DNA of 64,000 nucleotides from Bacteroidales bacterium (lineage in GTDB: Bacteria; Bacteroidota; Bacteroidia; Bacteroidales; PXBB01): positions 39,200 to 103,199 of the forward strand of contig JAQVVM010000001.1 of assembly GCA_028698995.1 (NCBI GenBank). The letters run 5' to 3'. Below are positions 21,600 to 61,406 of the stretch, one piece after another. The position numbers and the translations under genes are program-made. How positions within the stretch are numbered: the stretch's first letter is position 1; every line of letters starts with the position of its first letter. The notes under the pieces are model-generated. The model worked only from the letters and a program-made list of their open reading frames with translations, was not told where the DNA came from and made no database searches.

Positions 21600-21607
21600 T
21601 AAGTTTG
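21600..21607 (+). promoter_or_regulatory. Only exact TAnnTTTG match on the + strand upstream of the giant gene (TAAGTTTG). It would imply a ~350-nt leader.
   Basis: Manual scan of 21543..21962. The other TTTG sites there lack the TA. This box sits back-to-back with the minus-strand box at 21575..21582. Confidence 0.25.
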
Positions 21608-21962: not shown

Positions 21963-22052
21963 ATGAAACATAATTACATCGCCAGAATATTGGTAACAGC
22001 TTTTTTGTGCTCAGTTTTTTTTATGAGTACAAATAAATATGCATTTTCCCAA
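21963..22052 (+). other. Sec signal peptide of the giant protein
   Basis: A positive N-region (K2, R8), a hydrophobic core ILVTAFLCSVFFM and an A-F-S|Q-like cleavage context. Confidence 0.7.
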
Positions 22053-25000
22053 TGTACTAACTGTGGCTCTCAATATCCGAGTGGTACTTATTCAACTACT
22101 TCGAGCACATGGACAACAATATCTTCCGCTATCTATGGTTCAGAGTGGCATTATGCAACACTTGATGCCAACTATATTTATCAATGGAAGTCCAGCTCAA
22201 GTTACTATAATACCCAACTCACCCTTTATCCATCAGGTACCTGTGGTGGCACTTATTTATCATACAATTATTATTATCAACTGGAGGGTTCATATTATAA
22301 CTCATTAATGGTTTATAATCCGGGAACCACAAGTGTACGTATTCTTAATACTTTGTATTATTGTTCAAGCAATTCCTCTAGCGCAACTGTTCAAATGCGT
22401 GCTATCAATAAAAATCCTGTAATTACATCCAATTGGTCAACTGTCTGTTCCGGTGCTCCAGTTACTTTAACCAGAGATGTCCCTAATGATAGTTATGTTA
22501 CGACCTCATGGTGGGGTGGTTCACCAGCAATTAGTGCTTCTGGTTACTCTGTCGTTGTTTATCCAACATCATCGTCAACCTATTATATGCAACATAGTGT
22601 ATTAGGTGGATCCTCGACACAATATACCAACAGTGCCAGCTACACTATTACAGTGCAAGCTCAACCCAGTGCCCCTACTACTTCTTCACCTAATCCAAAT
22701 GCCTCTGAGGTTTGTAATGGTACTAATCTTACATTGGGTGGAGCTGCTTCTGGAGGTAACCCCGGAATCAATTGTTCAATTGGATACCAATATTCAACAA
22801 ATGGTGGTGCAAGCTGGATTTCAACAGGTACCTCTATTCCTTCATTTTCAGCTGTTCAAAATAATTACAATTACATTCAAGCACAGCGTTACAACTGTCA
22901 GTCAGGGTGCAATACAACCGGATGGGCTACTGTTGCCACCTGGTATGCTAGGCCTCAGGCTTCTGCTACTGCTGCAAGCGATCAAACTATCTGTACCGGC
23001 GGTACTGCTAACCTTTCTGTGTCTTACTCCGGTGGTGCAGGTACACCCGGTTATACATGGCAGTATCTGAATGGAGGAACTTGGACAAACACCGGTGCAC
23101 CCAGTTCTCCAAATTTTACAACACCCGCCCTTACTGCTACCACCTATTACAGATGTCTTGTCAATTTTAGCGTTACCGGTTGTTCTCAGGCTGTTTCTAA
23201 TACAGTTACAATTACTGTTGTTCCTGATCCCACAATATCAATTGCCATTTCTGCAGGCTACCCAAGCACAATTTGTAATGGAGCCGGAACTCAGCTTTAC
23301 GTAACAGGTGGCAATGCCGGAACCGGCACTGTTACTTATAACTGGCAAAGAAGAGGGCCAACAGGTTCTTGGGGAAATACAGGTGCAGGTGGAACTACAC
23401 TTAATACAGGCGGTCTAAGTGCTGATGGTACTTGGACTTTCAGATGTGAGAAAGTTGTTGCAGGATCAGGTTGTAATACCTCCTACTCCAATGAAGTCTA
23501 TGTTACTGTTGTGCCTCAACCCGGAGCTCCATCCACCGCCACTAAATCACCTAATGTTGCATCTGTATGCTCAGGAACTACTCTTTCTCTTAGTGGTGTT
23601 GCAAGTGGTGGAAATGCAGGTATAGGATGCTCCATTCAATACCAGTATTCTACAGATAATGGCTCTAATTGGACTTCTACGGGAACATCTGTTCCTTCGT
23701 TTGCTGCTGTCACCAGTACCAGCAATATAATTCAAGCTCAGCGTTCCGGCTGTCAGTCTGGATGCAATGCTTCTGCTTGGGCTACTGTGGCTACATGGCA
23801 GGTTGTTGCCCAACCTGATGCTCCAACTACAGCCACTAAAAATCCTAATGTTGCTTCAGTTTGTGCCGGTACAACATTAACTCTTTCTTCTGCTGCCTCA
23901 GGGGGAAATACCGGTGTCGGATGCTCTATTGAATACCAATACTCTACAGATGGAACTAATTGGACAAATACAGGGACTTCTATTCCTTCTTTTGCATCAG
24001 GTGCTGCCGGTTACACAAATACAATTCAAGCCCGACGTAGCGGTTGCCAGGCAGGTTGTACAGCTACCGGTTGGAATACTGTTGCAACATGGTCGAGTGT
24101 CGCTCAACCTTCTGCACCCACTACAGCAACCAAAAATCCAAATGTAACCAATGTCTGTTCTGGAACAACCCTGACTCTTAGTGGTGCTGCTTCCGGTGGT
24201 AATGCAGGTATTGGTTGTTCCATTGAATACCAATACTCTACTGATGGTGGCACTAACTGGACTGCCACCGGAACTTCTATCCCTTCTTTTGTTGCTGCTC
24301 AGGCAAATAACATCATTCAAGCCAGAAGAAGCGGTTGCCAGGCAGGGTGCACAACTACCGGATATGGTACTGTTGCCTCATGGACAGGCGTTGCTCAACC
24401 TGGTTATCCAACATCTGCAACAAAATCACCCAATGTTGCCTCTGTTTGTGTTGGCACAACTTTAACTCTGAGCGGTGCAGCTTCCGGAGGTAATGCCGGT
24501 GTGGGTTGTTCTATCGAATATGCCTATTCTACCGACAATGGTTCCAATTGGACATCAACAGGAACTTCTATCCCTTCTTTCGCCGCTGTTTTAAGTACAA
24601 CAAACCAAATCAGGGCTCAGCGATACAATTGCCAGGCCGGATGTAATCCATCCGGATGGAATGTCCTTGCCTCATGGACCATTGTTGCAGCTCCTGATCC
24701 TCCAACAACTGCAACTAAAAACCCAAATGTTACAAGTGTATGCTCCGGCACAACTTTAACTCTTTCTGGTGCAGCAACCGGTGGTAATGCCGGTGTAGGA
24801 TGCTCTATTGAGTATGCATATTCTGTCGATAATGGCGTTAACTGGACCAGTACCGGTACTGTAATTCCTTCTTTTGCTGCTGCAACAAGTGCTACCAATA
24901 GGATTCGTGCCCGAAGATATAACTGCCAGTCAGGATGTACGGCCTCTGCATGGAACGAATTGGTTTCTTGGGTTGTTGTTGCTCAACCAACTGCTCCAAA

Positions 25001-28000
25001 TACTTCAACTAGAAATCCAGATGTGGCCTCGGTTTGTGTAGGGACTACTCTTTCTCTTACATACAATGGTGGATTACTCGACTTTTCAACATGGCAGGCT
25101 GGCCAGACCGGAAGTGTAGGACAATTTTCAATGAACGGCGATGTTGCCGAAAATGCCAGAGTTATTGCCGCTGACCCCTGGGGTAACAATGCTGTTGTTT
25201 GGGAAACCAGAGCATCAGGAAATGGAAATGCTGATGGGGGTTGGAATAGCAGTATGTTTAACATTGATAATACAAAATTATACAGAGTATCTGTCTGGGT
25301 ACGCAGAACAAGTGCGACTTCAAGCGGAACTTTTTATTTAGGAACAAATGGTAATGTTGAAGTCTTAAGGGTTGATAATGGCGCTACAGCGAGTAATCCT
25401 TACTGGGATTGCCAGGGGACTGGTACATTAGCACAAAACCAATGGTATCTTGTTGTTGGACACGTTTTCCCTTATACCTATACAGGCACTACTGCGCATC
25501 CGGAAACCGGCTATTATACTGTAGCTTCAGGTACTACTAAAGTGAAAAATGTTAATTTTTGCAATATTGGCCCGGATGTTAAGTTTGCCCCTACTACCAC
25601 TCAGTTAAGACACAGAGCTTATCACTATTACTGTGGTGATGCTACGACCAGATTGCAGTTTGCGTACCCGAAAATTGAAGTTGTTGACGGCACCGAGCCT
25701 TCAATAAGTGATTTGGTGAAAGGTATTGCCGGTTTTGGTGGCTCATCAGGTGTTGCTTGTGGTATGGAATACCAATATTCAACTAATAATGGCAGTTCAT
25801 GGTCAACTGCAAGTACATCCATTCCTTCTTTTGCTGCTGTTTCAGGCACCAATCTTGTTCAGGCTAGACGTGTTACTTGCCAGACCGGTTGTAATCCCGG
25901 TGCATGGGGACAAATTGCCAGTTGGTCTGTTATTGCTGATCCAACCGCTCCGACCACTGCTACAAAATCGCCAAATTATGCTTCTGTATGTGCCGGAACA
26001 ACCCTTTCATTAAGTGGTGCTGCATCCGGTGGTAATGCAGGTGTTGGATGTGCTATTGAATATGCCTACTCAACCGATAATGGTTCAAACTGGGTTAGTA
26101 CCGGAACTTCTATTCCCTCTTTTGTATCTGTAACTTCTACCAGCAATAAAATTAGAGCCCGTAGATATGCTTGTCAGACCGGTTGCGATGATAGTCCCTG
26201 GGGTGAAGTTGCATCATGGGGTGTGGTGGCTCAACCTGCTGCACCTACAACTGCAACAAAAACACCAAATGTGGCATCTGTGTGTGCCGGAACAACATTA
26301 TCATTAAGCGGAGCAGCTTCAGGTGGTAATGCTGGTATTGGTTGCTCTATTGAATACCAATACTCTACTGATGGTACTAACTGGACAAACACAGGAACCT
26401 CTGTACCTTCCTTTGCAGCAGGTGCCGGAGGAAATACAAATACCATTCAAGCCAGACGTAGTGGATGTCAGTCAGGATGTACAACAACGGGTTGGAATAC
26501 TGTGGCAACATGGACCAGTGTCCTTCAGCCTGGGGCTCCAACAACTGCTACAAAAAACCCAAATGTAGCTTCTGTTTGTGCAGGACAAACTCTTACTTTA
26601 AGTAGTGCAGCTTCAGGTGGCGATGCCGGTGTTGGTTGCTCTATCGGTTATCAGTATTCTACAGATAATGGTGGTACTTGGACTTCAACAGGAACTTCAA
26701 TACCATCTTTTGCTGCTGTAACAAGTACAAGCAATATTATTCAAGCGCAACGTTATAATTGTCAGTCAGGATGTAGCAACTCAGCATGGGCTACTGTTGC
26801 TTCGTGGCAGGTTGTTGCCCAACCTGGTGCACCTACTGCTACAAAATCACCCAACTATACTTCTGTCTGCTCAGGAACAACTTTAACTCTTACAGGTCCA
26901 ACAAGCGGTGGTGGAGGTACTGGTACTTGTAGCTTTGAGTATCAGTATAGTACTGGTGGTGCCTATTCCGCATGGAGTACAACGTTGCCTAGTTTTGCTT
27001 CTGTTACCGGAACAAACGCTATCCGAATCAGACGCTATTGTAATGGAACCGGATGTAATGCTTCTGCTTATACAGAGTATTCTTGGACTGTTGTTGACCA
27101 ACCATCTGCACCAACTGCTGTTACAAAGTCACCTAATACTGCTTCTGTGTGTGCTGGTACTCTTGTAAGTGTAAGTGCCCCAACAGGTGGAAATCCCGGT
27201 ATTGGTTGTTCATTCCAGTACCGTTTTCTACGTGGTGCAGTTGTTATTCAGGACTGGAGTGCAACGGCAAGTTATACCACTCAGGCTGCTGATGTTGGAA
27301 ATACTATTAATGTTGTTGTCAAGAGAACAGCTTGTCAGACCGGATGTAATGAAGCAATAAGTGGTACTTTGGCATCATGGACAGTGTCGGCCCAACCCGC
27401 TGCTCCCACCGGGACAAAATCTCCGAATTTAGCTTCTGTCTGCTCAGGTGTAACGTTATCACTAACCGGTGTTACAGATAATGGTGGTGGTACAGGAACT
27501 TGTAGCATTGAATACAGACATACTACCGATGGTACAAATTGGACATCGTGGTCAACCACTCCTTCTAGTTTTACTTCTGTTGTTGGTACAAATACAATTC
27601 AAATCAGAAAGAATTGCAGTGGAAGCGGTTGTAATTATTCTTCAACTTCAGCCTATTCATGGACTGTTGTTGCTCAACCTTCAGCACCAACTACTGCAAC
27701 AAAATCTCCGGATATAGCAACTGTTTGTACAGGTGCTTCTTTGACTCTTAATGGAGTTGCCAGTGGTGGTAATGCAGGTGTAGGTTGTACAATTGAATAT
27801 CAATATTCAACAGATGGCACAAACTATACTGGAACTGGTGCTTCTGTACCTTCATTTACTGCTGTTACAGGAACCAATACCATTCAGGCTCGTAGATCAG
27901 GTTGTACAGCCGGAGCCGGATGCTCAACATCTGCATGGAACACCGTGGCAACATGGACAGCTGTTGTTCAACCTATTGCCCCAACAGCTACTAAATCTCC

Positions 28001-31000
28001 TAATGTTGCATCTGTATGTTCTGGAACTACCTTAACACTTACAGGCGTTACAGATAATGGTGGTGGTACCGGCACATGTAATATTGAATATAGGCACAGC
28101 ACTAATGGTGGTGGCACCTGGACATCATGGTCAACATCTCCTTCAAGTTTTACTGCTGTTACCGGAACAAATACTATTGAAATACGTAAAATTTGCAACG
28201 GCTCAGGTTGCAGTGTCTCTCCTTCTTCTGTCTATTCATGGACAGTTGCTGATCAGCCTACTGTACCTACGGCTACTAAGTCTCCAAATGTTGCTGCTGT
28301 CTGTGCCGGTCAAACTTTAACTTTAACTGGACCAACCAGCTCCGGTGGAACCGGTACTTGTAATTACGAATATCAGCACAATACAGGTAGTGGATATACC
28401 TCATGGAGTACAACAGTTTCAAGTTTTGCTGCTGTTGCAGGTACTAATTATATTCGTATTCGTAGGGTATGTTCTGGTACTGGTTGTACAACAACAAATT
28501 ATACAGAATACTCTTGGACTGTTTATGCACAGCCGGCAGCTCCAACTGCTACAAAGTCTCCTAATGTTGCATCTGTTTGTTCGGGTCAAACTCTTACACT
28601 TTCTGGAGTAACTGATAATGGTGGTGGTACAGGTACTTGCAATATTGAATATAGGCATAGTACTAACGGAGGTGGTGCTTGGACAGCATGGTCAACAACT
28701 CCTTCAAGTTTTACCGCTGTTACAGGTACAAATTTGATAGAAATACGTAAAAACTGTAATGGTACAGGATGTTCAGTGTCTTCTAGCTCACAATATTCAT
28801 GGACTGTTACAGATCAACCATCAGTTCCAACTGCAACTAAATCACCTGATGTTGCCAATGTTTGCGCCGGACAAATTTTAACACTGACCAATCCAACCAG
28901 CGCCGGTGGAACCGGTACTTGTAATTACGAATATCAGCATAATACAGGTAGCGGTTATACCTCATGGAGTACAACAGTTTCTAGTTTTGCCGCTGTAGCT
29001 GGTACTAATTATATCCGTATTCGAAGGGTGTGTTCTGGTACCGGTTGTTCAACTACAAATTACACTGAATATTCTTGGACTGTCTCAGCTCAACCCGCTG
29101 CTCCAACAGGAACAAAATCACCAAATTTGGCATCAGTTTGCTCAGGGGTAACTTTGTCACTCACCGGAGTTACAGATAACGGTGGAGGAACAGGTACATG
29201 TAATATTGAATACAGACACAGTACCGATGGTTCTACCTGGACATCTTGGTCAACGACTCCATCAAGTTTTGCTGCTGTTGTTGGAACAAATACAATTCAA
29301 ATCAGGAAAAATTGCAGTGGAAGCGGCTGTAGTTTTTCTTCTACTTCTGCTTACTCATGGACTGTTGTTGCACAACCTTCATCACCTACAACGGCAACAA
29401 AATCTCCTAATGTTGCTATAGTTTGTTCAGGCGCTTCTCTTACGCTTAACGGAGTTGCCAGTGGCGGCAATACAGGTGTTGGATGTACAATCGAATACCA
29501 ATATTCAACAGATGGCACAAACTATACAGGAACAGGGTCATCTGTACCTTCCTTTGCCGCTGTTACAGGAACTAACACTATTCAGGCTCGCCGATCAGGT
29601 TGCACAGCCGGAGCAGGGTGTACTAATCCCTCTGCATGGAACACAGTGGCTACATGGACAGCAGTTATTCAACCAAATGCACCTACAGCCACCAAAAATC
29701 CTGTAGATGCTTCAGTCTGCGAAGGAGTAACATTAACGCTTTCCGGTGTTACTGATAATGGAGGTGGTACCGGTACATGTAATATTGAATACAGACATAG
29801 CACAAATGGTTCTACTTGGACCACATGGTCAACAACTCCATCAAGTTTTACAGCTGTTGCAGGAACCAATACTATTGAAATTCGAAAGAACTGCAATGGC
29901 TCGGGTTGTAATGTATCAGCATCCTCATCTTATTCATGGACAGTTGCAGCACAACCATCCGTGCCAACAGCCACGAAATCTCCCAACGTGGCAGCAGTGT
30001 GTGCCGGTCAGTTTTTAACATTAACAGGACCAACAAGCACAGGTGGAACCGGTACATGTAATTTTGAGTATCAGTATAATACAGGAAGTGGATATTCAGC
30101 GTGGAGCACTACAGTTCCAAATTTTGCAGCAGTGGTCGGTACTAATTATATCCGAATCCGAAGGGTATGTACAGGAACAGGTTGTACAACACCGTCCTAT
30201 TCTGAATATTCTTGGACTGTATATGCCCAACCTGCGCTCCCAACTGCCACTAAGTCTCCAAATTTTGCTTCCGTTTGCTCAGGGGTAACTTTATCACTCA
30301 CCGGAGTTACAGATAACGGTGGAGGAACAGGAACATGTAATATTGAATACAGACACAGCACCGATGGCTCTACGTGGACACCATGGTCAACAACCCCATC
30401 AAGTTTTACGGCAGTTATCGGCACCAATTTGATAGAAATTCGTAAAACATGTAATGGAACCGGCTGTTCTGTATCTTCCAGCTCACAATACTCATGGACT
30501 GTTGTTGCACAACCTTCTGCACCAACTGCTGTAACAAAAACACCGAATACTGCTTCCGTTTGTGTTGGCACTTTAGTAAGTGTAAGTGCTCCATCAGGTG
30601 GAAATGCCGGCGTTGGCTGTTCATTCCAGTACCGTTTTCTACGTGGTGCAGCAGTCATTCAAGACTGGAGTGCAACGGCAAGTTATACTACTCAAGCAGC
30701 AGATGTTGGAAATACTATTAATGTACTTGTAAAAAGAACATCCTGCCAGACCGGATGTACAGAAGCTATAAGCGCTACTTTGGCATCATGGACTGTTACA
30801 GCACTACCTGCTGCACCAACAGGGACTAAGTCTCCAAATTTGGCATCTGTATGTGCTGGAACTAATTTATCACTCACCGGTGTTACAAATAACGGTGGAG
30901 GAACAGGAACATGTAATATAGAATACAGACACAGTACCGATGGTTCTACCTGGACATCATGGTCAACGACTCCATCAAGTTTTGCTGCAGTTGTTGGAAC

Positions 31001-34000
31001 AAATACAATTCAAATCAGACAAAATTGTGATGGAAGCGGTTGTGGTTTTTCTTCTACTTCTGCTTACTCATGGACAGTTGTTGCTCAACCAGCTGCCCCA
31101 ACTACGGCAACAAAATCTCCTGATGTTGTTAATGTATGCGCTGGTACTACACTTACTTTTAGCGGTGCTGCCAGTGGTGGTGATGCAGGTGTGGGTTGTA
31201 CTATTGAATACCAGTATTCAACTGATGGCACAAACTATACAGGAACAGGTTCATCAGTACCTTCCTTTGCCGCTGTTACCGGAACTAACACTATTCAGGC
31301 TCGCAGATCTGGTTGTACTGCCGGAGCTGGTTGTACAACATCGGGATGGAATACGGTTGCAACTTGGACAGTAAGTGCGCAACCCAATGCACCTACTGCT
31401 ACAAAGTCTCCAGTTGACGCTGTAGTGTGTGCAGGACAAACCCTTACTTTAACCGGTGTAACTGATAATGGTGGTGGTACTGGTACTTGCAATATTGAGT
31501 ACAGACATAGCACAAATAACGGCGGTACTTGGACAGCATGGTCAACCACTCCCTCTAGTTTTACTTCAGTCGTAGGAACTAACCTTATAGAAATCCGAAA
31601 GAACTGTAACGGTTCTGGATGTACTTACTCCCTTACTTCACAGTATTCATGGTCAGTAGTTGCCCAACCTTCTGTGCCTACGGCTACAAAATCTCCTGCC
31701 GTAACAAATGTGTGTTCCGGTCAGACACTAACATTGACATCACCGACTGGTACAGGTGGTACAGGAACCTGCAATTTTGAGTATCAACATAATACAGGAA
31801 GTGGATATTCAGCTTGGAGTACTACTGTTTCCAGTTTTGCTGCTGTAACAGGCACTAACTATATACGCATACGAAGGGCTTGTTCGGGAAGCGGATGTAA
31901 TCCTTCAAACTATACTGAATATTCCTGGACAGTTGCTGCCCAACCATCAATAACTTTAACAGGATCTAATCAGACAATTTGTGCAAGTGGTTCTGTTACT
32001 GGTTTTACAGCTACTATTTCAAATGGAACAGGTTGCGGATATCAGTGGCAAAGCAGTAACGATGGTGTCGCATGGTCGAATATTGGAGGTGCTACAACTT
32101 CTGCTTATACACCTTCAGGAGTAACAAAAACAACTTTCTACCGATGTGTAACCATAAGTTGTGGAACCGGTTGTTCTCAGGCTACTTCTCCGGTTAGAAT
32201 TGTTACTGTAACTTCTGTGCCTACTGCTGTTTTAACTCATCCCAGTCCTTCTTCTCAAACAGTTTGTGAGGGTGCTAATGTGAGCTATAGTGCTCAGGCT
32301 GATATGGGTTCTGGAACTAAACGTTACAGGGTTGTCTTTACTTCTGCTCATGGTACTGGTTGGCACGGTGTTCAGGAAATTTTGGGATACAATTCAGCCG
32401 GATCTTTGCAGGCACTTTCTTGTATTACTGCCTCTTCTGCTACTTATACGGACGATTTGTGTAACTATGCGTCTTATGGAGCTGCAAATGCTTTTGATGG
32501 TGTTTACAATTCCGCTAATTCATCAGGAGATCAATGGCTTACCCCAAAAAATAATACATCTCCAAACACCAATTGGCAAAACTATAATACTGTTAATCCT
32601 TTCTTTTCTCCTGAATGGGTTGAATTCAGTGCTCCTCAACCACTGAGCGAAATATGGATATATAATGGCAGGTATGCATCAGGAACAAGTACTACATGCT
32701 ACAAGGATTATTACATACTTATAAGCCATGATAATGGAACTTCTTGGTATAAAGTTAAAGAAGGTGCCATGACAAATGTTCAAGGATTTGACGGCAACAA
32801 TAATAAGTTTGTAATTGAACCAACTTATACATGGAAAAAGGGTGCAGCAACTGTAGGTAGTGGAAAAACTCTTGATTTGAACTCTGTAACACTTGCAAGC
32901 GCAGGAAATTATAATGTGGAATTGACTTATGGTTGTGGAACACCAACAAGCTCAAATTCAGCAACTTTATCAGTTGTTGTCCAACCATCAGCACCTACTG
33001 CAACAAAATCCCCTGTTGACGCTTCAGTTTGTGCCGGTCAAACACTAACTCTTACAGGTGTTACCGATAATGGAGGTGGTGCAGGTACATGTAATATTGA
33101 ATACAGACATAGCACAAATGGTGGTGCTAACTGGACAGCCTGGTCAACAACACCTTCAAGTTTTGCTGGTGTTGCAGGCACAAATCTCATTGAAATACGT
33201 AAACTTTGCAGTGGTTCCGGATGCACTGTTTCATCAAGTAATCAGTATTCATGGAACGTAACACCTCAACCATCAGTGCCAACTGCTACCAAATCACCCG
33301 ATGTCACAAATGTTTGTGCAGGTCAAATGTTGACGCTGATTAATCCCACAAGCACAGGAGGCACAGGTACTTGTACTTATGAATACCAACACAGTACAAA
33401 TGGTGGTACTAACTGGACAAGTTGGTCAACAACTGTTTCAAATTTTGCTGCTGTAGCCGGGTCAAATCTGATTCGTATCCGAAGAGTATGTAATGGTACT
33501 GGTTGTAATACTACTACTTATAATGAATACTCATGGACTGTTTCTGCACAACCTGCAGCTCCTACTGCTACCAAATCACCTGTTGATGCTACTGTTTGTG
33601 CCGGTCAGACACTTACTCTTTCAGGTGTTACAGATAATGGCGGCGGTACTGGTACTTGCAGTATTGAATATCGTCACAGTACTAATAATGGAGGAACTTG
33701 GACATCATGGTCGGGTACTCCTTCAAGTTTTACATCTGTTTCAGGTACTAACCTAATTGAAATTAGAAAAACATGTTCTGGAGCAGGTTGCAATGTATCT
33801 TCAAGCTCATCCTATTCATGGACAGTTGTGGATCAGCCTTCTGTACCAACTGCTACCAAATCCCCTGCTGTTACAGATGTTTGTGCTGGACAAACATTGA
33901 CACTTATTAATCCTAGCAGTACAGGAGGCACAGGTACATGTAATTATGAGTATCAACATAACACTGGAAGTGGATATACAACATGGAGTACTACTGTTTC

Positions 34001-43000: not shown

Positions 43001-46000
43001 AACTATTTATGGTATTACGGTCCCTGTAGCACATGAATACAGATGCGTTGTTATGGGAGATTGTGATCCTCCTACTATTTCTTCGTCTGCATTCTTATTA
43101 GTAACTGATTATACAGCTATAAGTGTACAACCTGTTGATGAGACTGTTTGTCAGGATCTGATTGCTACATTTGAAGTAACAGCTCAAGGAACTGACTTAG
43201 CATATAAATGGCAGTACAACAACAGTGGCAGTTGGGAGGATATTCCTTCAGGAGCACCTTATACAGGCGAAACAAGTACTCTTTTGACAATTAATCCAGC
43301 AACATTAAGCCTTGACGGACAAGAATACAGAGTTGTAGTTACAGGTTTATGTACGCCTTTTGGTGATACTTCAGATGTTGTTGTACTACATGTAAACCCG
43401 GCTCCTGTAGTAGATGTTCAGGCTATAAATGACACTATTTGCCCCTTAGGCACTGCTTATTTAGGTGTAGATGCAAGTGGCACCGGTTCTTTAACATATC
43501 AATGGCAGTACAACAATGGAGGTACTTGGGAAAATGTTGCTAATGGTACACCAACAGGTGCATCTTATACTAATGCAACAAGTGATACAATAACTATTTC
43601 AGGTATTTCTGTTGTAGAAACTTATGAATACAGAATTGAAGTTTATGGTGATTGTGATCCTCCGACCTTATCCAACAGTGCTCAAGTTGTGATTTTGGAT
43701 TATACAGCAATAACCACAGAACCAATAGATGCTATTTTATGTCAAGATCTGATAGCAAATTTTGAAGTCACTGCAGAAGGAACAGCATTAAGTTATCAAT
43801 GGCAATATGAAAACGGTGGTTTATGGGTCAATGTTCCTTCTTCATCTCCTTACTCTGGAGTAACAACTTCTACTTTAAGTGTTAATCCTGCATCTCTTGG
43901 TTTGAATGGTCAAGATTACAGAGTTGTTGTTTATGGCTTATGTACGCCATATTCAGACACCTCTGTTGTTGTTGAACTTACTGTTAACCCTGCTCCTGTA
44001 GTTGATATTCAACCTGTCAATGATACCATTTGTCCATTAGGATTGGGCACCATGAGTATAACAGCAAGTGGTAGTGGTACTTTAGAATATCAATGGCAGT
44101 ATAATAACGGTGGTACTTGGGAAAATGTAATTAATGCAACGCCTGCTGGAGCAACCTATACAGGAGATGATACTGATGAATTGTCAATTAATGGCATTTC
44201 TGTTTCAGGTCCTTATGCATATAGATGTGCTGTTACCGGAGATTGTAATCCTCCAGTAAATTCAAATCAAGCGCTTTTGGTAGTATTAGATTATACAGAA
44301 ATAACAGTTCACCCGGTTAATGATACTGTTTGTCAGGATCTTCCTGCAAGCTTTGCAGTAACAGCACAAGGAACAGGTTTAGCTTACAGATGGCAGTACA
44401 ATAATGGAGGTAGCTGGGAAAATGTTCCATCAGCAGTACCTTATTCAGGAGAAACCACGACAACATTGAATCTCAGTTCAGCAAGTTTAAGTCTTGATGG
44501 TCAAGAATACAGGGTTGTAGTAACGGGATTATGTACTCCATTTGCCGACACATCAACAGTGGTTGAATTAACAGTAAAACCTGCGCCTGTTGTAAATGTA
44601 CAGGCTGTGAATGATACCATCTGTCCATTAGGAAGCGGAACTTTGGAAATTACCGCCAGCGGCAGCGGAAGTTTAGCCTATCAATGGCAGTATAATAATA
44701 GCGGCTCCTGGGTAAATGTTTCTAATGGCACACCTGCAGGAGCATCATACAGTGGTGCGCTAACGAATGGAATAACAATTAATAGTGTTTCAGTTGCAGG
44801 TACACATGAATATAAGTGTATAGTCATAGGAGATTGTGATCCTCCTACAGAATCCAATTCAGCATATCTGGTAGTGAGAGATTACACAACCATAAGTGTA
44901 CAACCAGAAAATGATACAGTATGTCAGGATTTGACAGCAACATTCGAGGTAACTGCACAAGGAACAGATTTAGCCTATAAGTGGCAATACAATAACAGTG
45001 GTACATGGTTAAATGTTCCGACAGGATCACCCTATTCCGGTGAAACAAGTTCTGTTTTAAGTGTCAATCCGGCCTTATTAAGTCTTGATGGACAGGAATA
45101 CAGGGTTGTCGTAACGGGTTTATGTACACCATTTGCAGATACTTCAGATGTTGTAGTGCTACATATAAATCCTGCGCCAGAAGTAGATGTACAGGCAGTT
45201 AATGATACCATTTGTCCGTTAGGTACCGCTTACCTTGGCATCGAAGCCAGCGGAACAGGAACTTTGACTTATCAGTGGCAGTATAACAATGGAGGTATCT
45301 GGGTGAATGTCGCCAATGGTACACCAACAGGTGCATCTTATACTAATGCAACAAGCGATACCATAACAATTTCAGGTATTTCAGTTGTAGGAACCTATGA
45401 ATATAGAATTGAAGTTTATGGTGATTGTGATCCTCCAACGCTATCCAATAGTGCTCAAGTTGTGATTTTGGATTATACGGCAATAACTATAGAACCAACA
45501 GATGCCAGTGTATGCCAGGATTTGATAGCAAATTTTGAAGTCACAGCAGAAGGAACCTCTTTAAGTTATCAATGGCAATATGAAAGTGGCGGCTTGTGGA
45601 ACAATGTGCCATCTTCATCCCCATATTCGGGAGCAACAACCTCAATACTGAGTATAGATCCTGCATCCCTTAGTTTGGACGGACAGGATTACAGAGTTGT
45701 TGTTTATGGCTTATGTACGCCATATTCAGACACCTCTGCAGTTGTTGAACTTACTGTTAACCCTGCTCCTGTAGTTGATATTCAACCTGTCAATGATACC
45801 ATTTGTCCATTAGGATTGGGCACCATGAGTATAACAGCAAGTGGTAGTGGTACTTTAGAATATCAGTGGCAGTATAGTAACAGTGGTTTGTGGGAGAATG
45901 TAGCAAATTCAACTCCAACCGGAGCAACCTATACAGGAGATGATACTGATGAGCTGACTATAAGTAGTGTTTCAGTTTCCAGTTCATATATGTACAGATG

Positions 46001-49000
46001 TATTGTTACAGGAGATTGTGATCCTCCAGTAAATTCAACACCGGCCCATCTAATTGTATTAGATTATACAGCTGTTGTGGTTCAACCGGTCAATGATACT
46101 GTTTGTCAGGATCTTCCTGCAAGCTTTGCAGTAACAGCACAAGGAACAGATTTAGCATATAGATGGCAGTACAACAATGGAGGCACATGGGCTGATGTTC
46201 CATCTTCTACACCTTATTCAGGAGAAACCACAACAACATTGAGCCTCAGTTCAGCAAGTTTAAGTCTTGATGGTCAAGAATACAGGGTTGTAGTAACGGG
46301 ATTATGTACTCCATTTGCCGACACATCAACAGTGGTTGAATTAACAGTAAAACCTGCGCCTGTTGTAAATGTACAGGCTGTGAATGATACCATCTGTCCA
46401 TTAGGAAGCGGAACTTTGGAAATTACCGCCAGCGGCAGCGGAAGTTTAGCCTATCAATGGCAGTATAATAATAGCGGCTCCTGGGTAAATGTTTCTAATG
46501 GCACACCTGCAGGAGCATCATACAGTGGTGCGCTAACGAATGGAATAACAATTAATAGTGTTTCAGTTGCAGGTACACATGAATATAAGTGTATAGTCAT
46601 AGGAGATTGTGATCCTCCTACAGAATCCAATTCAGCATATCTGGTAGTGAGAGATTACACAACCATAAGTGTACAACCAGAAAATGATACAGTATGTCAG
46701 GATTTGACAGCAACATTCGAGGTAACTGCACAAGGAACAGATTTAGCCTATAAGTGGCAATACAATAACAGTGGTACATGGTTAAATGTTCCGACAGGAT
46801 CACCCTATTCCGGTGAAACAAGTTCTGTTTTAAGTGTCAATCCGGCCTTATTAAGTCTTGATGGACAGGAATACAGGGTTGTCGTAACGGGTTTATGTAC
46901 ACCATTTGCAGATACTTCAGATGTTGTAGTGCTACATATAAATCCTGCGCCAGAAGTAGATGTACAGGCAGTTAATGATACCATTTGTCCGTTAGGTACC
47001 GCTTACCTTGGCATCGAAGCCAGCGGAACAGGAACTTTGACTTATCAGTGGCAGTATAACAATGGAGGTATCTGGGTGAATGTCGCCAATGGTACACCAA
47101 CAGGTGCATCTTATACTAATGCAACAAGCGATACCATAACAATTTCAGGTATTTCAGTTGTAGGAACCTATGAATATAGAATTGAAGTTTATGGTGATTG
47201 TGATCCTCCAACGCTATCCAATAGTGCTCAAGTTGTGATTTTGGATTATACGGCAATAACTATAGAACCAACAGATGCCAGTGTATGCCAGGATTTGATA
47301 GCAAATTTTGAAGTCACAGCAGAAGGAACCTCTTTAAGTTATCAATGGCAATATGAAAGTGGCGGCTTGTGGAACAATGTGCCATCTTCATCCCCATATT
47401 CGGGAGCAACAACCTCAATACTGAGTATAGATCCTGCATCCCTTAGTTTGGACGGACAGGATTACAGAGTTGTTGTTTATGGCTTATGTACGCCATATTC
47501 AGACACCTCTGCAGTTGTTGAACTTACTGTTAACCCTGCTCCTGTAGTTGATATTCAACCTGTCAATGATACCATTTGTCCATTAGGATTGGGCACCATG
47601 AGTATAACAGCAAGTGGTAGTGGTACTTTAGAATATCAGTGGCAGTATAGTAACAGTGGTTTGTGGGAGAATGTAGCAAATTCAACTCCAACCGGAGCAA
47701 CCTATACAGGAGATGATACTGATGAGCTGACTATAAGTAGTGTTTCAGTTTCCAGTTCATATATGTACAGATGTATTGTTACAGGAGATTGTGATCCTCC
47801 AGTAAATTCAACACCGGCCCATCTAATTGTATTAGATTATACAGCTGTTGTGGTTCAACCGGTCAATGATACTGTTTGTCAGGATCTTCCTGCAAGCTTT
47901 GCAGTAACAGCACAAGGAACAGATTTAGCATATAGATGGCAGTACAACAATGGAGGCACATGGGCTGATGTTCCATCTTCTACACCTTATTCAGGAGAAA
48001 CCACAACAACATTGAGCCTCAGTTCAGCAAGTTTAAGCCTTGATGGTCAAGAGTACAGAGTTGTTGTTACAGGTTTGTGCACACCTTTTGCCGATACTTC
48101 TTCTGTGGTTGAATTAATTGTAAAACCCGCTCCAATTGTTACAGTTCAGTCTGCAAATGATACTATTTGTCCATTGGGAACTGGAAATCTTAATATTTCA
48201 GCCAGTGGTAGCGGTAGTTTAACCTATCAATGGCAGTATAATAATAGCGGCTCCTGGGTAAATGTTTCTAATGGTACACCTTCAGGTGCATCATACAGTG
48301 GTGGTCTAACTGATGAACTAACAATAAGTAGTGTATCTGTTGTTGGCTCACACGAGTATAAATGTATTGTATTTGGAGATTGCGATCCTCCATCTGAGTC
48401 CAATTCAGCATATCTTGTAGTAAAGGATTACACTTCAATAATTGTTCAGCCAGTTAATGATACGGTATGCCAAGATTTAGTCGCCACTTTTGAAGTAACT
48501 GCGCAGGGAACAGATTTAGCATATAAGTGGCAGTATAATAACAGTGGCACTTGGGAAGATGTTCCTACAGGAATACCCTATTCCGGAGAAACAAGCAGTG
48601 TTTTGATTATTGATCCGGCTTCTATAAGTCTTGATGGTCAAGAGTATAGGGTTGTTGTAACCGGTTTCTGTACACCATTTGCCGACACATCAGATGTTGT
48701 GGTATTATACATAAATCCTGCACCATCAATTGATGTTCAAGCTATAAATGATACTATCTGTCCGTTAGGCACTGGAGCTTTTGGAATAGAAGCCGGCGGT
48801 ACTGGTACCTTAACATATCAATGGCAGTACAACAATGGGGGCACATGGAATAATGTAATTGATGGCTCTCCATTAGGTGCGATATATACAAATGCCGATA
48901 ATGATACTGTTTCTATAAGTGGTATTTCGGTAGTAGGCACTCATGAATACAGATGTGAAGTAAGTGGTGACTGTGATCCTCCTTCATTATCATCTGTCGT

Positions 49001-52000
49001 TAGTCTTTATGTAATGAATTATACTTCTGTCTCTGTTCAACCAATTAATGATACAGTATGTCAGGGTCTTCAGGCAAACTTCGAAGTTACTGCATTAGGT
49101 ACTAATTTGACTTATAAATGGCAATATAAGAATGGAGTTTCATGGGAAAATGTACCATCCGGTGCACCATATACAGGAGAAACTACATCAATACTAACAA
49201 TTTATCCTACGACTCTCCTCATGAATGAACAAGAATACAGAGTTGTAGTAACAGGAACTTGTACACCTTTCGGAGATACATCTGATGTTGCTGTTTTATA
49301 TATTAATCCTGCTCCGGTTGTTACTATTCAGCCTTTAAATGACACTATTTGTCCTTTAGGAAATGGTTTGATTGGTATTGTTGCAAGTGGTAGTGGTACA
49401 TTAAATTATCAATGGCAATTTAATAACAGCAGTGTTTGGGAGGACGTAGTAAATGATGCTCCGTTAGGCGCTTCCTATACAGGTGCAAATGATGACACAT
49501 TAAATATAAGTGGTGTATCCGTAAGTGGAGCACATCAATATCGTGTTATAGTTACAGGTGATTGCGACCCAAGTGTAACATCTGAAATAGCATCTTTGGT
49601 TGTACTACCTTCAACTGATATTACAGTTCAACCGGAAGATCAGGCTGTATGCCAAGATTTACAAGCTGATTTTGTAGTTTTTGCCGTAGGATCATCACTT
49701 ACTTATCAATGGCAGATTGATACTACAGGTGTTTGGGAAAATCTGTCTGATAATAGCCCTTTCACAGGTGTAAATACAAGTACATTATCTGTAAGTCCTG
49801 CTTTCCTATTCTTGGATAATAGCAATTATAGGGTTATCGTTTATGGCAATTGCTTACCAGATTCAGTTGTGTCTGATATAGTTCAGTTAAATATAAATAA
49901 CCCACCCTACTTTATTATCAATCCTGCAAATGATACAATTTGTGCCGGTGGTTCGGGTGATTTCAATGTGTTAGCATCCGGATATGGCACCATAGGCTAT
50001 CAATGGCAATATAATAATGGTGGGGTGTGGGAAGATGTTTCTGATGGATCTCCAATAGGATCAATCTATACCGGTCAAAATAGTTCAAATCTTAATGTAA
50101 GTGGCGTTTCTGCAAGTGGTTTGTATGAATATATTGCTATTGCATCGGGTACTTGTGAGCCTCCAGCTGTTTCAAGTTCTGCTTTTCTTTATGTAGAACC
50201 GGCTTTGGCCATAACATCTCAACCGCTGGATCAGAATGTTTGCGAAGGCTCTTCAGCTGACTTTGTTACAGTTGCTGTTGGTGGTGGTGTAACATACCAA
50301 TGGCAGTTTTATGATGGTGTTGACTTCGTTAATCTATTAGATACAGGCAACTATTCAAATGTTACAACTAATAATATGACTATCAGTGCTGTTAACATGT
50401 CAATGGATGATTTTATTTACAGAGTTGTTATTGGTGATAGTTGTACTGTGGGAAATATCCCATCTGATCCATGTACATTAAATGTACTTTCTGATCCGTT
50501 TATTGTTACACATCCTTCTGATAGTTCTGTTTGTGAAAATAGCAATGTGGCATTCGGAATTGTTGCTAATGGATATGGTGTGTTAACTTATCAATGGCAG
50601 GTCAGTGATGATCAGGGTGTTAACTGGACAAATTTAACAAATACAGGATTTTACTCTACTGTAACAAATGATACATTAATTATTACAGGTGCTGATGTTA
50701 CTTTACAGGCAAATTGGTATAGGTGCGTTGTTAATGGCAACTGCTCACCACCGGAAGCTTATTCTAATCATGCTGTATTAACTATTTTAACTTCGCCGGT
50801 AATCACACAAGACCCTATAGAAAGTGAAGTTTGTGAAGGCACAACTGCAATGTTTAATGTTATTGCAACAGGATTTGGATTGCAGTATCAATGGCAGATT
50901 AAACCAACATCAACTGGTATATGGGTCAATCTTAATGACGTTCCTCCTTATACAGGTAGTTCCAACGATGTTCTTAATATTTCACCGGTTACTGCTTTAA
51001 TGCACAACGACTCATTTAGAGTTGTAATTGGAGGTACGTGCTCTGCATTACCAACAATTTCTGAAGCAGCAGCATTAAAAATTCTTCTCGCTCCATTTAT
51101 AATTTCAGATCCAACAGATACTGTCGTATGCGATAATGGAAATGCAACTTTCACTACTGAAGCCGGTGGATATGGTAATCTTATTTATCAATGGGAAGTA
51201 TGTACTGACGGTTTTGGAAATTCATGGCTTGAAGTTCAGGATGGAGGTGTTTATTCAGGAGCTTCGACTGATGAACTTTTGCTTACGGGTGTGAGTACTT
51301 CAATGAGTAATTATTGGTACAGGTGTAAAATAACCGGAGATTGTTCTCCTCCCGATGCATACTCTGAAAAAGCAATTTTATGGGTGAATTCAGGACCACA
51401 GGTTATAACACAACCTGTCGATACAGCATTTGTTTGTGAAGATGATAACTTAATTCTTGGTATAGAGGCTAGTGGTGGTTTCCTATCATACCAATGGCAG
51501 GTAAACACCGGAAGTTCATGGGAAAACATAACATTATCTCTTGGAGGTAATCATCCTGTTTACAATAATTTCGACAATGATACTCTCGAAGCAACTAATG
51601 TTAGTATTGCTCATAATAACTATAAATACAGATGTATTGTAAACAGTATCTGCCAACCCTATGTTGCCCAATCTGATGTGGCAGTACTTTCAGTTATGTT
51701 AAAACCTTATATTATTACTCAACCTCATGATACAACAAGCTGTGAAGGCTTAGATGCAGGATTTTCAATAGTAGTAGGAGGTCAGGGTATTAACTATTAC
51801 AAATGGTTTGAAAGTGATGATTCGGGCTTTAGCTGGACCAGTCTAAATGATGTTCCCGGATCATATTCCGGAACAAATACAAATTCTCTTACTGTTGAGA
51901 ATGTAAATTCCAGTATGCACGAATATATGTACAGGGTAGAAATTGGAGGTCAATGTCCTCCAAACATCTTCTCTGCATATGCAGTTTTATATATTGGAAG

Positions 52001-55000
52001 CCCTCCAAGTGTATTACTGCATCCTACAACAATTGATACTGTTTGTGCCGGTGTTACACCAGCTGTGTTTAGTGCGCTTGGTACGGGTTATGGTACTATA
52101 ACCTATCAGTGGCAACAGTTGTTAGATGATACAGGAGCTGTATGGACAAATTTAATTGATACATTATCTTATACTGGATCAACAACGAGTCAATTAACAA
52201 TTAATCCTGTTGAGGTTGAGCTTGATGGTTCTGCTTACAGAGCTGTAATTTCCGGTTCTTGTGACCCTGCTGATACTACAGATGCAGCTTATATCTTTGT
52301 AAAATCAGAACTTATCGTTTCATTAACCAATCCATCTCCTTACGAATACCTTGCTTCAAATGGTAATTATACATTCTCATGGGTAACTTTGGGTGATGAT
52401 CCTGTTGTTTGTGATTTAACGGTTGAGGGTTCCACAACTTATAATGTGCCTGCCGATTCTTCAGGTTATTATAACAGACCCGGTACAACAGGCAGTTCCC
52501 TCCCAACAGCTAATTTTTATCAATGGTCGGTTGAAGGCACAAATCAATGCGGATATGATAATGTCACGTTCCAATATTACAGAAAAAAGGAAATTTCTCC
52601 TATTGATAATTATATTGTTGAACCTATTTTCAATCTTCCAAATGCAAACTCTGTTTTCTATTATTACCTGACAATGGAAAAGGATGTTACCTATTATTTC
52701 AGAACTGATGGGCAATTTAATTCATATGGAAATAGAAATATTGAAGTGTTGAATTCTGCAGGTACTGTTGTTGCAGGGCCAAGTACTTTTGTTTCCTATG
52801 TATGTGATGCAAATGGTATTTATTATGTAAAAGTTTCTGCTGGTTCAGGTAGTGGAGGTATATTTAGCTTAGCTCATAGGTATTTCTTTAGTTGTGACAA
52901 TATATTTGTAACGGGTGATACCACTATATTAAGTAATTCACTTATGGGTGGTGTTTATACCTGTACAGGAGACTTTATAGTGCCTCCTGGTGTTGTTATT
53001 ACTGTACGTCAGGCTTGTAGAGAACTTGTAGTACATGCAAGAAATATTAGAATTCAGGGAGATATTGTTGCAAATGGTTCAGGTGATTATTATTCGGGTG
53101 GAGGTTACGGTGGTACATGTTCAAGAGGCGGATGGTATGATCCATATCAAGGTTGGTTGATTTACGGGGATTCCGGTTTAACATGTGTTGGATTAGACTA
53201 TTGTGATAAGAACTCGAGTACAGGAATCAGAACTTATGGTGGAGAGGGCGGATATGTTCCCTATGAAAATTGGCCAAATTCAGCCGGAAGACCCGGAGCT
53301 GATGGAGGAAGTGGTTTTGGAAGTGACCAATTCTGTAATACTTTTGGCGATGAAGCCGGAGCTGTAGGTGGTGCCGGTGGCGGCGGTGGCGGCGGCGGAG
53401 GCGGCTATGGGGGTTCCGGTGGAACCGGTGGAAACGGTGGAAACGGTGGCAATGCAAATACCAACGAAGCTACTCCCGGTAATCCTCTTTTCAGAGGATT
53501 GGGCGGATCCGGTGGCACTGGTGGTTTGTCTCATGGTTATGCAACATTACCCGACAGTATTAGATGGGGTGCCGGTGGAGCCGGTGCCGGTGGTGGTGGT
53601 AAAGGTATGGGTATTTCTGGTGGTTCTTATTTTAATTATGGTGGATCTGGTGGTGGTTCAGTAAAACTTTATGCAACTTTTGACGTGAATATTCCTGGCA
53701 ATATTACAGCAAATGGAATGTCCGGATATGCCGGCGGAGCCGGTGGTACCGGTGGTAGGGGAGACAGATGTTGCTCTGATATGTCATCAGGATGTGATGA
53801 ATATACCTACGTCGGAAGTGGCGGTGGAGGCGGTGGTGCCGGTGGTGGATCAGGCGGCGGTGTTTTGGTATCAGCTAATGGCATCATGGAATTCACTGGA
53901 AGTATAAGTGCAAACGGAGGCGATGGTGGTCTTGGAGGAACAACAAGTGGTTCTGTATCATGCGATGGATATTATGGTTACACAGGTTCAAATGGTTCAA
54001 GAGGTGGTGGCGGTGGCGGTGGCCGTATTATTATTCAAAGAAACCCTTGCTTTATTAATAATATCAATCCTTCATCTTTAAGTGTAAACGGAGGAACCGG
54101 AGGTAGCAACGGCGGTACTGGAACTATAGAACATGTTAATTCAGGTTCCATTGATAATTATTGGATTGGTGTTATTGACAGTAACTGGTTTAACTTAGGA
54201 AACTGGAGTTGTAATATGCTGCCTGATATTGCTACTGATGTGGTCATAAATGATTCAGCAACCATTAATGGTGTGTGGTCTAAAGTGCCAAATATGCCGG
54301 TTATTCATATAACACCTACTTCACTTCTTAATGCTTATACCAAGTCACTTGATATTAGGTTAAATGCATCGGTGAAATTTAAACCTGATATTTCAAACCC
54401 CAAAACTTTGATAATTGGGCAAGATCTCAGAGCTGTTGGGCCTTTGTATTTCACAGGCAGTGATGATGTTGATATTATATTAACAGGTGCCAATGCATCA
54501 ATAATTGTGACTAATAATAGTATTAAAAATACACGAATTAAAATTGATAATGGAGCTTCCTATAAAACATACGGAACATTCCCTGTGTATAAACTTAATA
54601 TTTTGGGCAATTTAACAGTAAATAACTTTGACACTGTGTACACATATAAGTTGTTTATTGACGAAAATGTTGGACAATTTAATCTTGAAGCTTTTGCATG
54701 GGTTGGATTTGCAGGTGCTGATGATGCTAACCATTTTAATATTGAACTTGATACATTTAATACTAGATTCAATGTGTCAGATGGAGGTGTTATTTTTAAT
54801 AATGGCGATACGATGTGGAATGGAATTTATAACTCTGAATTCGAGTCACAGAGAATACGTTCGTTTAATTACAGATGGGTATTAGCAAATGCAGGAAATA
54901 CTGGAAGCTCTAAAGTTTTAACTATAGGCTCTGCTATACCCAATAAACCTGTTTATGTTCAAAGATTGGAATTGCTGAATACCAGTTATAATGGTGTTAT

Positions 55001-57140: not shown

Positions 57141-57150
57141 GATTTCTTTT

Positions 57151-57197
57151 AAACAAAAACGACCTCTTGAGATGACTCAAGGGGTCGTTTTTGTTTC
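57151..57197. terminator. Rho-independent, potentially bidirectional terminator after the giant gene
   Basis: aaacaaaaac GACCTCTTGAG atga CTCAAGGGGTC gtttttgttt. The stem is 11 bp with one G-U pair and the loop is 4 nt. An A-tract lies 5' and a T-tract 3'. It starts 11 nt after the stop codon. Confidence 0.7.
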
Positions 57198-57533
57198 TTC
57201 TCTATTGATTTTATATTCAATGAATATTAGGTACATACATAGGTGCAAAATGAAGTTATTTTAGTTATTATCTTTTGCGTAAAGCAATTTGAAATCGAAA
57301 ATTCTACTTCACATAGCATCTGACATATTCAAATACTCTGAATTATATTTATCAAAATTTTTATTCTATTACCGGCAGGGAACTAATACTTTAATTTTTT
57401 ACACTTGAGCAAAAATGAATTTTTATACATGAAGTTTAAAAGTTGTCTTATCCTACAGAAGCTAAAATTTAAAATCCCAAAGGACATAAAATATAAGAAA
57501 AAAAAGAAGAGGATACTAAAACGAAAAGTAAAC

Positions 57534-58430: not shown

Positions 58431-58470
58431 ATTTAGTAATTTTAAGAATTAAAAATATTGTATGTAATAA

Positions 58471-60105: not shown

Positions 60106-60131
60106 AAAAAATAATTAGTAAATGATATGAC

Positions 60132-61389: not shown

Positions 61390-61406
61390 TATAAATATTA
61401 AATATA

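Follow-up and report, generated by a model that had tools for sequence, protein, structure and literature searches.

A 35-kb gene of an uncultured Bacteroidota encodes a very long Ig-repeat protein, probably a surface fibre, with a type A T9SS sorting domain

An intact reading frame of 11,725 codons

The 64,000-nt stretch analysed here (the window; contig JAQVVM010000001.1, Bacteroidales bacterium) contains a giant open reading frame (ORF) on its forward strand. We consider it likely that this gene encodes an intact, very long cell-surface fibre or adhesin of an uncultured Bacteroidota, presumably exported through a type IX secretion system (T9SS). Features of the gene and its surroundings are listed in Table 1.

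The 35-kb gene is real and coding. Its translation contains the terminal stop as the sole stop codon, so that the single uninterrupted frame reported in the initial annotation of this DNA is borne out, and the window is free of any N. With the base composition of the ORF itself, the probability of a stop is 0.063 per codon and ~739 stops would be expected (log10 P(none) = -331). Read in any of its other five frames, this DNA has 588-1020 stops. Thus, selection and not chance keeps the frame open. The ATG is the first start codon past an in-frame stop located 6 codons upstream. The initial annotation had also placed the frame in AT-rich DNA. This does not particularly apply to the ORF, which has a GC content of 0.38-0.46 versus 0.30-0.34 in the flanks. 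The raised GC content is a consequence of a composition rich in Thr, Ser, Gly, Val and Ala, with the excess located at codon position 2 (0.45/0.54/0.23 for the three positions). A foreign origin of the gene was ruled out, since GC at the third codon position (GC3, 0.23) resembles that of the neighbouring genes (0.25-0.29) and the GC excess is compositional.

The gene ends

The N-terminus of the protein (MKHNYIARILVTAFLCSVFFMSTNKYAFS, followed by Q) shows the n-, h- and c-regions of a Sec-type signal peptide. Residues 5-24 are the sole clear hydrophobic segment of the protein; two windows within Ig (immunoglobulin)-like units barely reach the threshold. In three homologues (P0095, P0180 and P0124) the signal peptide likewise ends in [SG]Q, and the CTNCG/CYTC head sequence of the giant protein comes next. 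Since the junction of signal peptide, Q and CTNCG is conserved in all three, both the start codon and the cleavage site are supported.

At the opposite end a C-terminal sorting domain (CTD) was found by PF18962 (aa 11646-11714, E 1.6e-11, 44.7 bits versus a cut-off of 27) and by the type A model TIGR04183 (aa 11646-11724 of 11,725, 44.5 bits versus a cut-off of 23). With a type A CTD and a Sec signal peptide, the protein has the sequence characteristics expected of type A T9SS cargo. An intrinsic terminator follows the stop codon. The Sec signal peptide, canonical T9SS CTD and strong terminator named in the initial annotation were all recovered here. Within the ORF no strong terminator was detected: the candidate sites there form weak hairpins of 5-9 pairs, and their number does not exceed that in shuffled sequence.

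For the promoter, a weak candidate is the Bacteroidota -7 motif TAnnTTTG in the intergenic region upstream of the gene. A mirror-image TAnnTTTG at 21575-21582 on the reverse strand points toward the divergent TPR gene, and the motif also occurs 9-34 nt upstream of several other gene starts. It is not enriched across the window. A sigma-70 promoter scan upstream of the giant gene gave hits no commoner than in shuffled sequence.

Ig-like units of two types

Repeat units were counted by an iterative hidden Markov model (HMM) built on the giant protein itself, together with self-comparison. This yielded 94 Ig-like units of 95-107 aa (86 of them strong), which cover 9,597 of the 11,725 residues (82%) and agree with the approximately 95 beta-sandwich units estimated in the initial annotation. 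The protein contains 322 Cys. Two types of units are present, referred to here as N-type and C-type, and their profiles are homologous (hhalign 96.9%).

The 48 N-type units, 41 of them strong, are located within aa 242-5394 and possess four conserved Cys (consensus TKSPNVASVCxGxTLTL...GTC.IEYQ.ST.G..W...RR.C.G.GC...YSWTV). No single unit passes as a match to Pfam; weak scores appear only when summed over many repeats. An AlphaFold 2 (AF2) model calculated with 40 internal copies as alignment is all-beta, with a predicted local distance difference test (pLDDT) score of 85. Its neighbours in the PDB by Foldseek are fn3, PKD and Ig domains, including stem fragments of GhpA, at E 0.02-0.3, which indicates likeness at the level of the fold only. 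By sequence, the N-type profile matches RemA, chain D of 8gl6 (the SprA-PorV-RemA structure), in 2 stretches with E 1.3e-5.

The 46 C-type units (aa 5565-10126) are I-set-like. They match Pfam Ig_3 and I-set as well as Ig domains in the PDB (best E 2.6e-20), and C10, G23, W31 and C80 are invariant. Units of this array share 39% identity with their direct neighbours (lag 1), but 54% and 59% with units at lags 2 and 6, respectively. Two unit subtypes alternate inside a super-repeat of 6 units and 591 aa. Tandem Ig arrays tend to avoid near-identical neighbours, and the alternating A-B pattern fits this tendency. In N-type array II (25716-32246), as in the C-type array, an Ig unit consistently resembles its direct neighbour less than it resembles the units 2 or 6 positions away.

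In 29 of the 46 C-type units, a conserved site close to the beginning carries the motif D-(S/T)-(A/I/L/V/M/T), typically as N-D-T-[IV]-C. We take this motif to be the O-glycosylation sequon of Bacteroidota. The first 4,500 aa lack it, while the whole protein has 59 sites versus 42 +/- 6 in shuffled sequences.

Head, inserts and C-terminal base

All non-Ig inserts are found within aa 1-5555, the N-terminal 47% of the protein, while aa 5565-10126 are uninterrupted. The head directly follows the signal peptide, and its last ~90 aa may form a further weak Ig-like unit. Three further large repeat proteins (2,602-3,606 aa), two of which end in a type A CTD, carry a sequence of 40-47% identity to it at their mature N-termini. 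This conservation at mature N-termini suggests a specific function at the distal tip. The best-defined insert is the FISUMP domain, with E 2e-37 and 7e-39 for PF09603 in two scans and 113.8 bits for TIGR02145 (cut-off 41.65). Apart from this domain, head and inserts gave nothing in Pfam, NCBIfam and PDB sequence searches beyond the weak neuropilin/discoidin match of insert 2. For insert 1 a jelly-roll or lectin-like fold would be a guess from its sequence.

The C-terminal non-repeat base in front of the sorting domain comprises 1,600 aa. Its glycine-rich module is conserved as one piece in at least 24 other Bacteroidota T9SS proteins, often directly after the signal peptide, and contains 64 invariant columns, mainly Gly. 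AF2 gave a confident model for it, with a mean pLDDT of 79.5 and a predicted template-modelling score of 0.79. A comparison with PDB folds gave nothing significant, the best hits being beta-helical TPS domains and snow-flea antifreeze protein at E >=1.5. A relationship to the glycine-rich domain of the ALK/LTK type, a lead prompted by PF12810/PF21722 on relatives, was unsupported, as the AF2 model lacks a significant match among PDB folds. The final ~370 aa of the Asn-rich region are common to a subset of T9SS type A proteins. Pre-CTD domain and CTD together form a terminal module of ~185 aa with 26-42% identity to dozens of T9SS type A proteins.

Table 1. Features of the giant gene, of its neighbourhood and of two metagenomic relatives. 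Nucleotide positions refer to the window unless a contig is named.
Feature	Position (nt)	Strand	Residues (aa)	Remarks
Giant ORF	21963..57140	+		ATG, 11,725 codons plus stop; product predicted 1.226 MDa, pI 4.45
Candidate Bacteroidota -7 promoter motif TAnnTTTG (TAAGTTTG)	21600..21607	+		inside 420-nt, 25% GC intergenic region; weak
Sec signal peptide	21963..22049	+	1-29	predicted cleavage between AFS and Q
N-terminal head	22050..22685	+	30-241	212 aa, starts QCTNCGSQYPSGT; no Pfam match
N-type array I	22686..25082	+	242-1040	8 full four-cysteine units of ~96-100 aa; weak ninth runs into insert 1
Insert 1	25083..25715	+	1041-1251	non-repeat; no PDB or Pfam match
N-type array II	25716..32246	+	1252-3428	23 units
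Insert 2	32247..33002	+	3429-3680	weak similarity to neuropilin b1/b2 (F5/8 type C, discoidin), E 0.0097; no Pfam match
N-type array III	33003..35552	+	3681-4530	9 units
FISUMP / Fib_succ_major domain	35649..36185	+	4563-4741	PF09603, TIGR02145
Mixed zone	36186..38627	+	4742-5555	four divergent 'YQWQ' Ig units, insert 3, ~80-aa stretch, PKD_6
Insert 3 (in mixed zone)		+	5008-5296	~290 aa; unclassified
PKD_6 domain (in mixed zone)		+	5473-5555	Pfam
C-type array	38655..52340	+	5565-10126	46 consecutive I-set/Ig_3-like units, no inserts
Perfect tandem duplication	44472..48037	+		2.01 copies without mismatch; period 1,773 nt, equal to 6 Ig units or 591 aa
Unclassified domain	52341..52859	+	10127-10299	
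Glycine-rich module	52860..54167	+	10300-10735	~430 aa
Asn-rich non-repeat region	54168..56582	+	10736-11540	very weak PATR hint only
Pre-CTD domain	56583..56897	+	11541-11645	
T9SS type A C-terminal sorting domain	56898..57137	+	11646-11725	PF18962, TIGR04183
Intrinsic terminator	57152-57195	+		20-pair hairpin, then T-rich tail; 12 nt past stop codon
LolB1_Flavo equivalog	3930-4760	-		169 bits versus cut-off 50
NTP_transferase gene	6551-7552			
GT2 gene	8183-9112			
Membrane-TPR protein	9045-11036	+		paralogue of 18822-21542 product
Type A T9SS cargo	11109-18794	+		2,561 aa; 7 SprB repeats, fn3 domains, Por_Secre_tail; next same-strand gene upstream
Membrane-TPR protein	18822-21542	-		divergent from giant gene
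ChaN-like haem-binding protein		opposite		next gene downstream of giant gene
Metagenomic ORF L005	2-19084 of JGI contig Ga0209697_10003651			>=6,361 codons; corresponds to P0080 (6,810 aa, type A CTD)
Metagenomic ORF L006	2184-18806 of JGI contig Ga0118677_10001847 (43.9 kb)			>=5,541 codons; open at end of retrieved stretch

Relatives

At E <= 1e-3 the N-type repeat profile matched 11,885 of 1.84 billion cluster representatives. Within the 150 best-scoring of these proteins the longest has 7,356 aa and the largest number of repeats in one protein is 70; the giant protein is longer than any of the 150. A CTD motif terminates 9 of the 10 large top hits whose ends were read, mostly of type B and in at least one case of type A. 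A metagenome scan revealed two other giant mosaic ORFs (L005 and L006 in Table 1) with FISUMP domains and the 'YQWQ...CYRR' Ig subtype, which are not orthologous to the giant gene. The product of L006 might be longer than 10,000 aa as well. When the last 1,626 aa and the first 1,260 aa were used as queries for homologues, only smaller proteins sharing some of the modules were obtained, and a scan of genome contigs gave only CTD-proximal matches of ~170 aa. A full-length orthologue was not found in these searches.

Proposed route to the cell surface

In the mechanism we propose, the protein would be exported by Sec and the signal peptide removed ahead of Gln30. The ~94 Ig-like domains would fold in the periplasm, where the two invariant Cys of each C-type unit and the four conserved Cys of each N-type unit could form disulfides. 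The type A CTD would then direct the protein to the T9SS translocon (SprA/Sov), and the folded ~100-aa domains would pass serially, like beads on a string. The SprA translocon is ~70 Å wide and passes folded substrate, and T9SS exports GhpA and SprB with 5,898 and 6,497 aa, respectively (bioRxiv 10.1101/2024.01.29.577165). Since folded substrate is passed and proteins of ~6,000 aa are handled, a string of ~100-aa domains should create no new topological problem and would merely be transported more slowly. Finally, the CTD would be cut off by PorU and the new C-terminus joined to anionic lipopolysaccharide (LPS), as for other type A cargo, which is covalently attached to it (PMC9143113).

Because of this C-terminal anchoring, the 1,600-aa base would be located next to the outer membrane and the insert-bearing half would be distal. 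The uninterrupted rod of 46 C-type Ig units would serve as a spacer, from which the N-terminal half could project up to about 0.4 µm from the cell. Ligand binding would be the role of this half, in which N-type units alternate with the head, the FISUMP domain, the discoidin-like insert and two inserts of no known class; the ligands would probably be glycans carried by particles or by other cells. Scaling from GhpA (5,898 aa, 240 nm) or assuming ~4 nm per Ig unit gives an extended length of roughly 0.4-0.5 µm. The initial annotation had suggested a fibre of several hundred nm, which is reasonable by analogy with the 52 stem repeats and 240-nm hooks of GhpA.

Gene neighbourhood

The next gene upstream on the same strand encodes a second type A T9SS cargo of 2,561 aa. 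Its DNA contains internal repeats, 13339-14694 being 66% identical to 14083-15438. This gene is bracketed by two genes for paralogous membrane proteins with tetratricopeptide repeats (TPR). The two membrane-TPR proteins are 31% identical and share 10-14 predicted membrane helices, an N-terminal NG(S/E)FLNWDD motif and C-terminal TPR repeats. Neither the membrane parts of both proteins against Pfam nor the larger protein against PDB sequences gave a match. The architecture resembles that of TMTC/PMT-like GT-C protein O-glycosyltransferases. Together with the GT2 and NTP_transferase genes, the two membrane-TPR genes may constitute a glycosylation cassette for the two Ser/Thr-rich cargos.

The genes flanking the giant gene also include one for an M28 peptidase. 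The window also contains a LolB1_Flavo equivalog; LolB1_Flavo is the outer-membrane lipoprotein insertase of Bacteroidota and was reported to be necessary for gliding and T9SS (PMC11885536). A flanking housekeeping gene has its nearest homologue at 71% identity, and the named relatives are Bacteroidota metagenome-assembled genomes. LolB1_Flavo, the homologues of flanking genes and the adjoining second type A cargo thus support an affiliation with Bacteroidota. Rfam and tRNA scans of the window gave no hits.

Assembly support

Within the C-type array the sequence contains a perfect tandem duplication, in which a run of 1,793 nt recurs unchanged 1,773 nt further on. It is the sole exact repeat longer than 125 nt in the giant gene and is part of a four-copy super-repeat, the other copies of which are only 60-90% identical. 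The duplication results either from a recent unequal crossover or from a copy number that was mis-set or homogenised in polishing. As 1,773 is divisible by 3, the frame is kept with any whole number of copies, and the intactness of the ORF is independent of that number. With a single copy of the duplicated block, the protein would have 11,134 aa and still be 'large'. The earlier reading of the gene as intact rather than a fusion or pseudogene is supported, but its exact length is not.

Independent sequence is available from Logan short-read contigs of run SRR22315503. One contig (L001) is 100% identical to window positions 52405-64000 and stops at nt 52405 (aa 10,147), about 65 nt past the last Ig unit. 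The retrieved part of another (L004) is 100% identical to positions 1-19112; this contig ends near 20864, inside the AT-rich TPR gene. These matches provide independent confirmation of both flanks and of the gene's 3' 4.7 kb. The source contig of 204.6 kb spans the giant gene.

Several observations weigh against the reading as an intact, very long surface fibre. The perfect 1,773-nt duplication makes the copy number, and hence the exact length, uncertain, and the repeat-rich middle 30 kb rests solely on the source assembly. Genes of the T9SS core (SprA/Sov, PorV, PorU, GldKLMN) are absent from the 64-kb window. The searches yielded no full-length orthologue that would attest to conservation of the entire architecture. 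Finally, no family could be assigned to the head, to ~1,000 aa of the base or to three of the four inserts, so that 'lectin-like', as judged from sequence matches, is firm for FISUMP only and weak for insert 2.

Comparison with known giant adhesins

RemA, a mobile lectin adhesin of Flavobacterium johnsoniae, is a type A CTD cargo with a lectin domain of the SUEL/Gal_Lectin class (galactose/rhamnose-binding). It resembles the giant protein by its homologous Ig-like repeats and as a T9SS cargo that pairs Ig repeats with a carbohydrate-binding module. RemA has ~1,400 aa, and in place of its lectin the giant protein bears FISUMP, discoidin-like and unclassified inserts. Gal_Lectin was not matched in any Pfam scan of the giant protein. 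Giant RTX adhesins of the type I secretion system (T1SS; MpIBP, LapA, SiiE) also hold ligand-binding modules far from the cell by means of a long 'extender' of near-identical Ig-like domains. They differ in secretion system, anchoring end and repeat family (BIg) and are presumably analogous, not homologous.

SprB, a gliding adhesin of F. johnsoniae with 6,497 aa and 669 kDa (PMC9127263; bioRxiv 10.1101/2024.01.29.577165), is, like the proposed fibre, a giant Bacteroidota surface filament of the T9SS type that consists mostly of Ig-like repeats and carries a signal peptide and a C-terminal sorting domain. The giant protein is 1.8 times as long. SprB relies on the adaptor SprF and combines SprB repeats with a type B CTD; the giant protein has a type A CTD, no segment of it matched the type B models TIGR04131 and PF13585, and SprB repeats (PF13573) are absent from it although present in the neighbouring 2,561-aa protein. 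GhpA from Aureispira sp. (5,898 aa) forms heptameric hooks of 240 nm with 52 Ig-like stem repeats (bioRxiv 10.1101/2024.01.29.577165). Common to both proteins are export as a T9SS substrate (presumed for the giant protein), a long Ig-like stem, many (here predicted) disulfides, a separate module at the N-terminal, distal end and likely O-glycosylation. At the level of the fold, the model of the N-type unit can be superposed on fragments of the GhpA stem. In contrast to GhpA, the giant protein is twice as long, its head comprises 212 instead of 1,400 aa, and no porP/porE pair resembling ghpB/C is located downstream.

West-Roberts et al. defined proteins of at least 10,000 aa as 'large' and those of at least 30,000 aa as 'giant' and described examples from many phyla, among them a 36,805-aa protein from Chlorobi and an 85,804-aa protein from Omnitrophota (bioRxiv 10.1101/2023.11.21.568195). 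The placement of the present protein among the largest bacterial proteins in the initial annotation was therefore overstated. With 11,725 aa it belongs to their 'large' but not their 'giant' class, and it shares a repeat-rich build and a presumed adhesive function with many members of the former; it differs in having neither transmembrane regions nor SecA-like domains, is far below the maxima, and belongs to Bacteroidota, which are not among the phyla highlighted there. It is a very long but ordinary member of the known class of giant adhesins represented by SprB, RemA and GhpA and not a new kind of system.

Alternative explanations

The ORF could be intact while its length is a product of the assembly, with the tandem duplication and possibly other repeat blocks expanded, collapsed or homogenised; the true protein would then differ by multiples of 591 aa, or of ~197 aa elsewhere. 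We regard this as unlikely, though by no means negligible, since the exact repeat is unique in the gene and contrasts with its diverged super-repeat copies, and since both Logan contigs stop at the positions given above. However, recent unequal crossover leaves the same pattern, which is how tandem Ig arrays evolve; the source contig spanned the gene; all other repeat pairs have diverged enough to be resolved; and an error of this kind would alter the length of the protein, not its nature. Far less probable still is an open frame without one functional product, because the gene is silent, yields fragments only or arose by recent fusion of an N-type and a C-type cargo gene. The two halves do use different repeat subtypes, their junction zone (aa 4531-5564) is a domain mosaic, and the metagenomic relatives L005 and L006 share the architecture in part only. 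Nevertheless, all 11,725 codons are free of stops and GC3 does not vary along the gene, whereas a decaying 35-kb pseudogene would quickly gain stops. One signal peptide and one CTD are each located at the proper end without a strong terminator between them. Moreover, the two unit types are homologous to each other, and Pfam shows that relatives commonly have mixed arrays.

Two further alternatives concern function. A mobile gliding adhesin like RemA or SprB, propelled on a gliding track instead of forming a static LPS-anchored fibre, appears rather improbable. The match of the N-type profile to RemA and the SprB repeats of the neighbouring protein (11109-18794) are in line with it, as is the fact that SprB itself is an Ig-repeat filament of ~6,500 aa (bioRxiv 10.1101/2024.01.29.577165; PMC9127263). 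The giant protein, however, lacks SprB repeats and a type B CTD. Pfam detected no adaptor of the SprF/PorP type among the larger flanking ORFs (membrane-TPR, ChaN-like, M28 peptidase), smaller ORFs not having been scanned exhaustively, and gld and spr genes are missing from the window. In addition, a fibre of ~0.4 µm would far exceed the known track adhesins. We consider it very improbable that the protein forms a multi-stranded, rigid 'grappling hook' like heptameric GhpA for catching prey or partner cells. Foldseek does place the N-type unit among GhpA stem fragments (9flw, 9g8b, 9fls, 9flu; E 0.04-0.3, template-modelling score 0.47-0.50), the two proteins share the build of a Cys-rich, Ig-repeat T9SS substrate whose N-terminal head is set apart, and GhpA has disulfides between neighbouring Ig-like domains (bioRxiv 10.1101/2024.01.29.577165). 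This likeness, however, is confined to the generic Ig fold, as neither repeat profile matched GhpA at E <= 0.1 in searches of all PDB chain sequences, GhpA entries included. The head is much smaller than the GhpA hook, the next gene downstream is ChaN-like and on the opposite strand, and no genes of a type VI secretion system are present in the window.

Significance

An intact, very long surface fibre anchored by its C-terminus thus remains our preferred reading. The protein is ~1.8-2 times as long as the largest characterised T9SS substrates, which extends the size range of T9SS cargo to roughly twice the characterised examples. Its proposed layout of a membrane-proximal base, an unbroken Ig spacer and a distal half with binding modules could guide experiments on threading, anchoring and display. 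Since short-read assemblies break at such genes, giant adhesins of Bacteroidota are probably under-counted in metagenomes. In a more far-reaching version, which we consider doubtful, the protein would be the longest T9SS substrate described, a single-chain or bundled fibre of ~1.2 MDa and ~0.4-0.5 µm with about twice the reach of SprB and GhpA. It would present a distal multivalent lectin-like array on a glycosylated spacer of 46 Ig units, might be modified by the two adjoining TMTC-like membrane-TPR proteins, and would serve the long-range capture of particles, algae or prey. If this were true, the protein would lend itself to studying how a cargo of ~100 folded domains is dealt with by T9SS and the PorU sortase.

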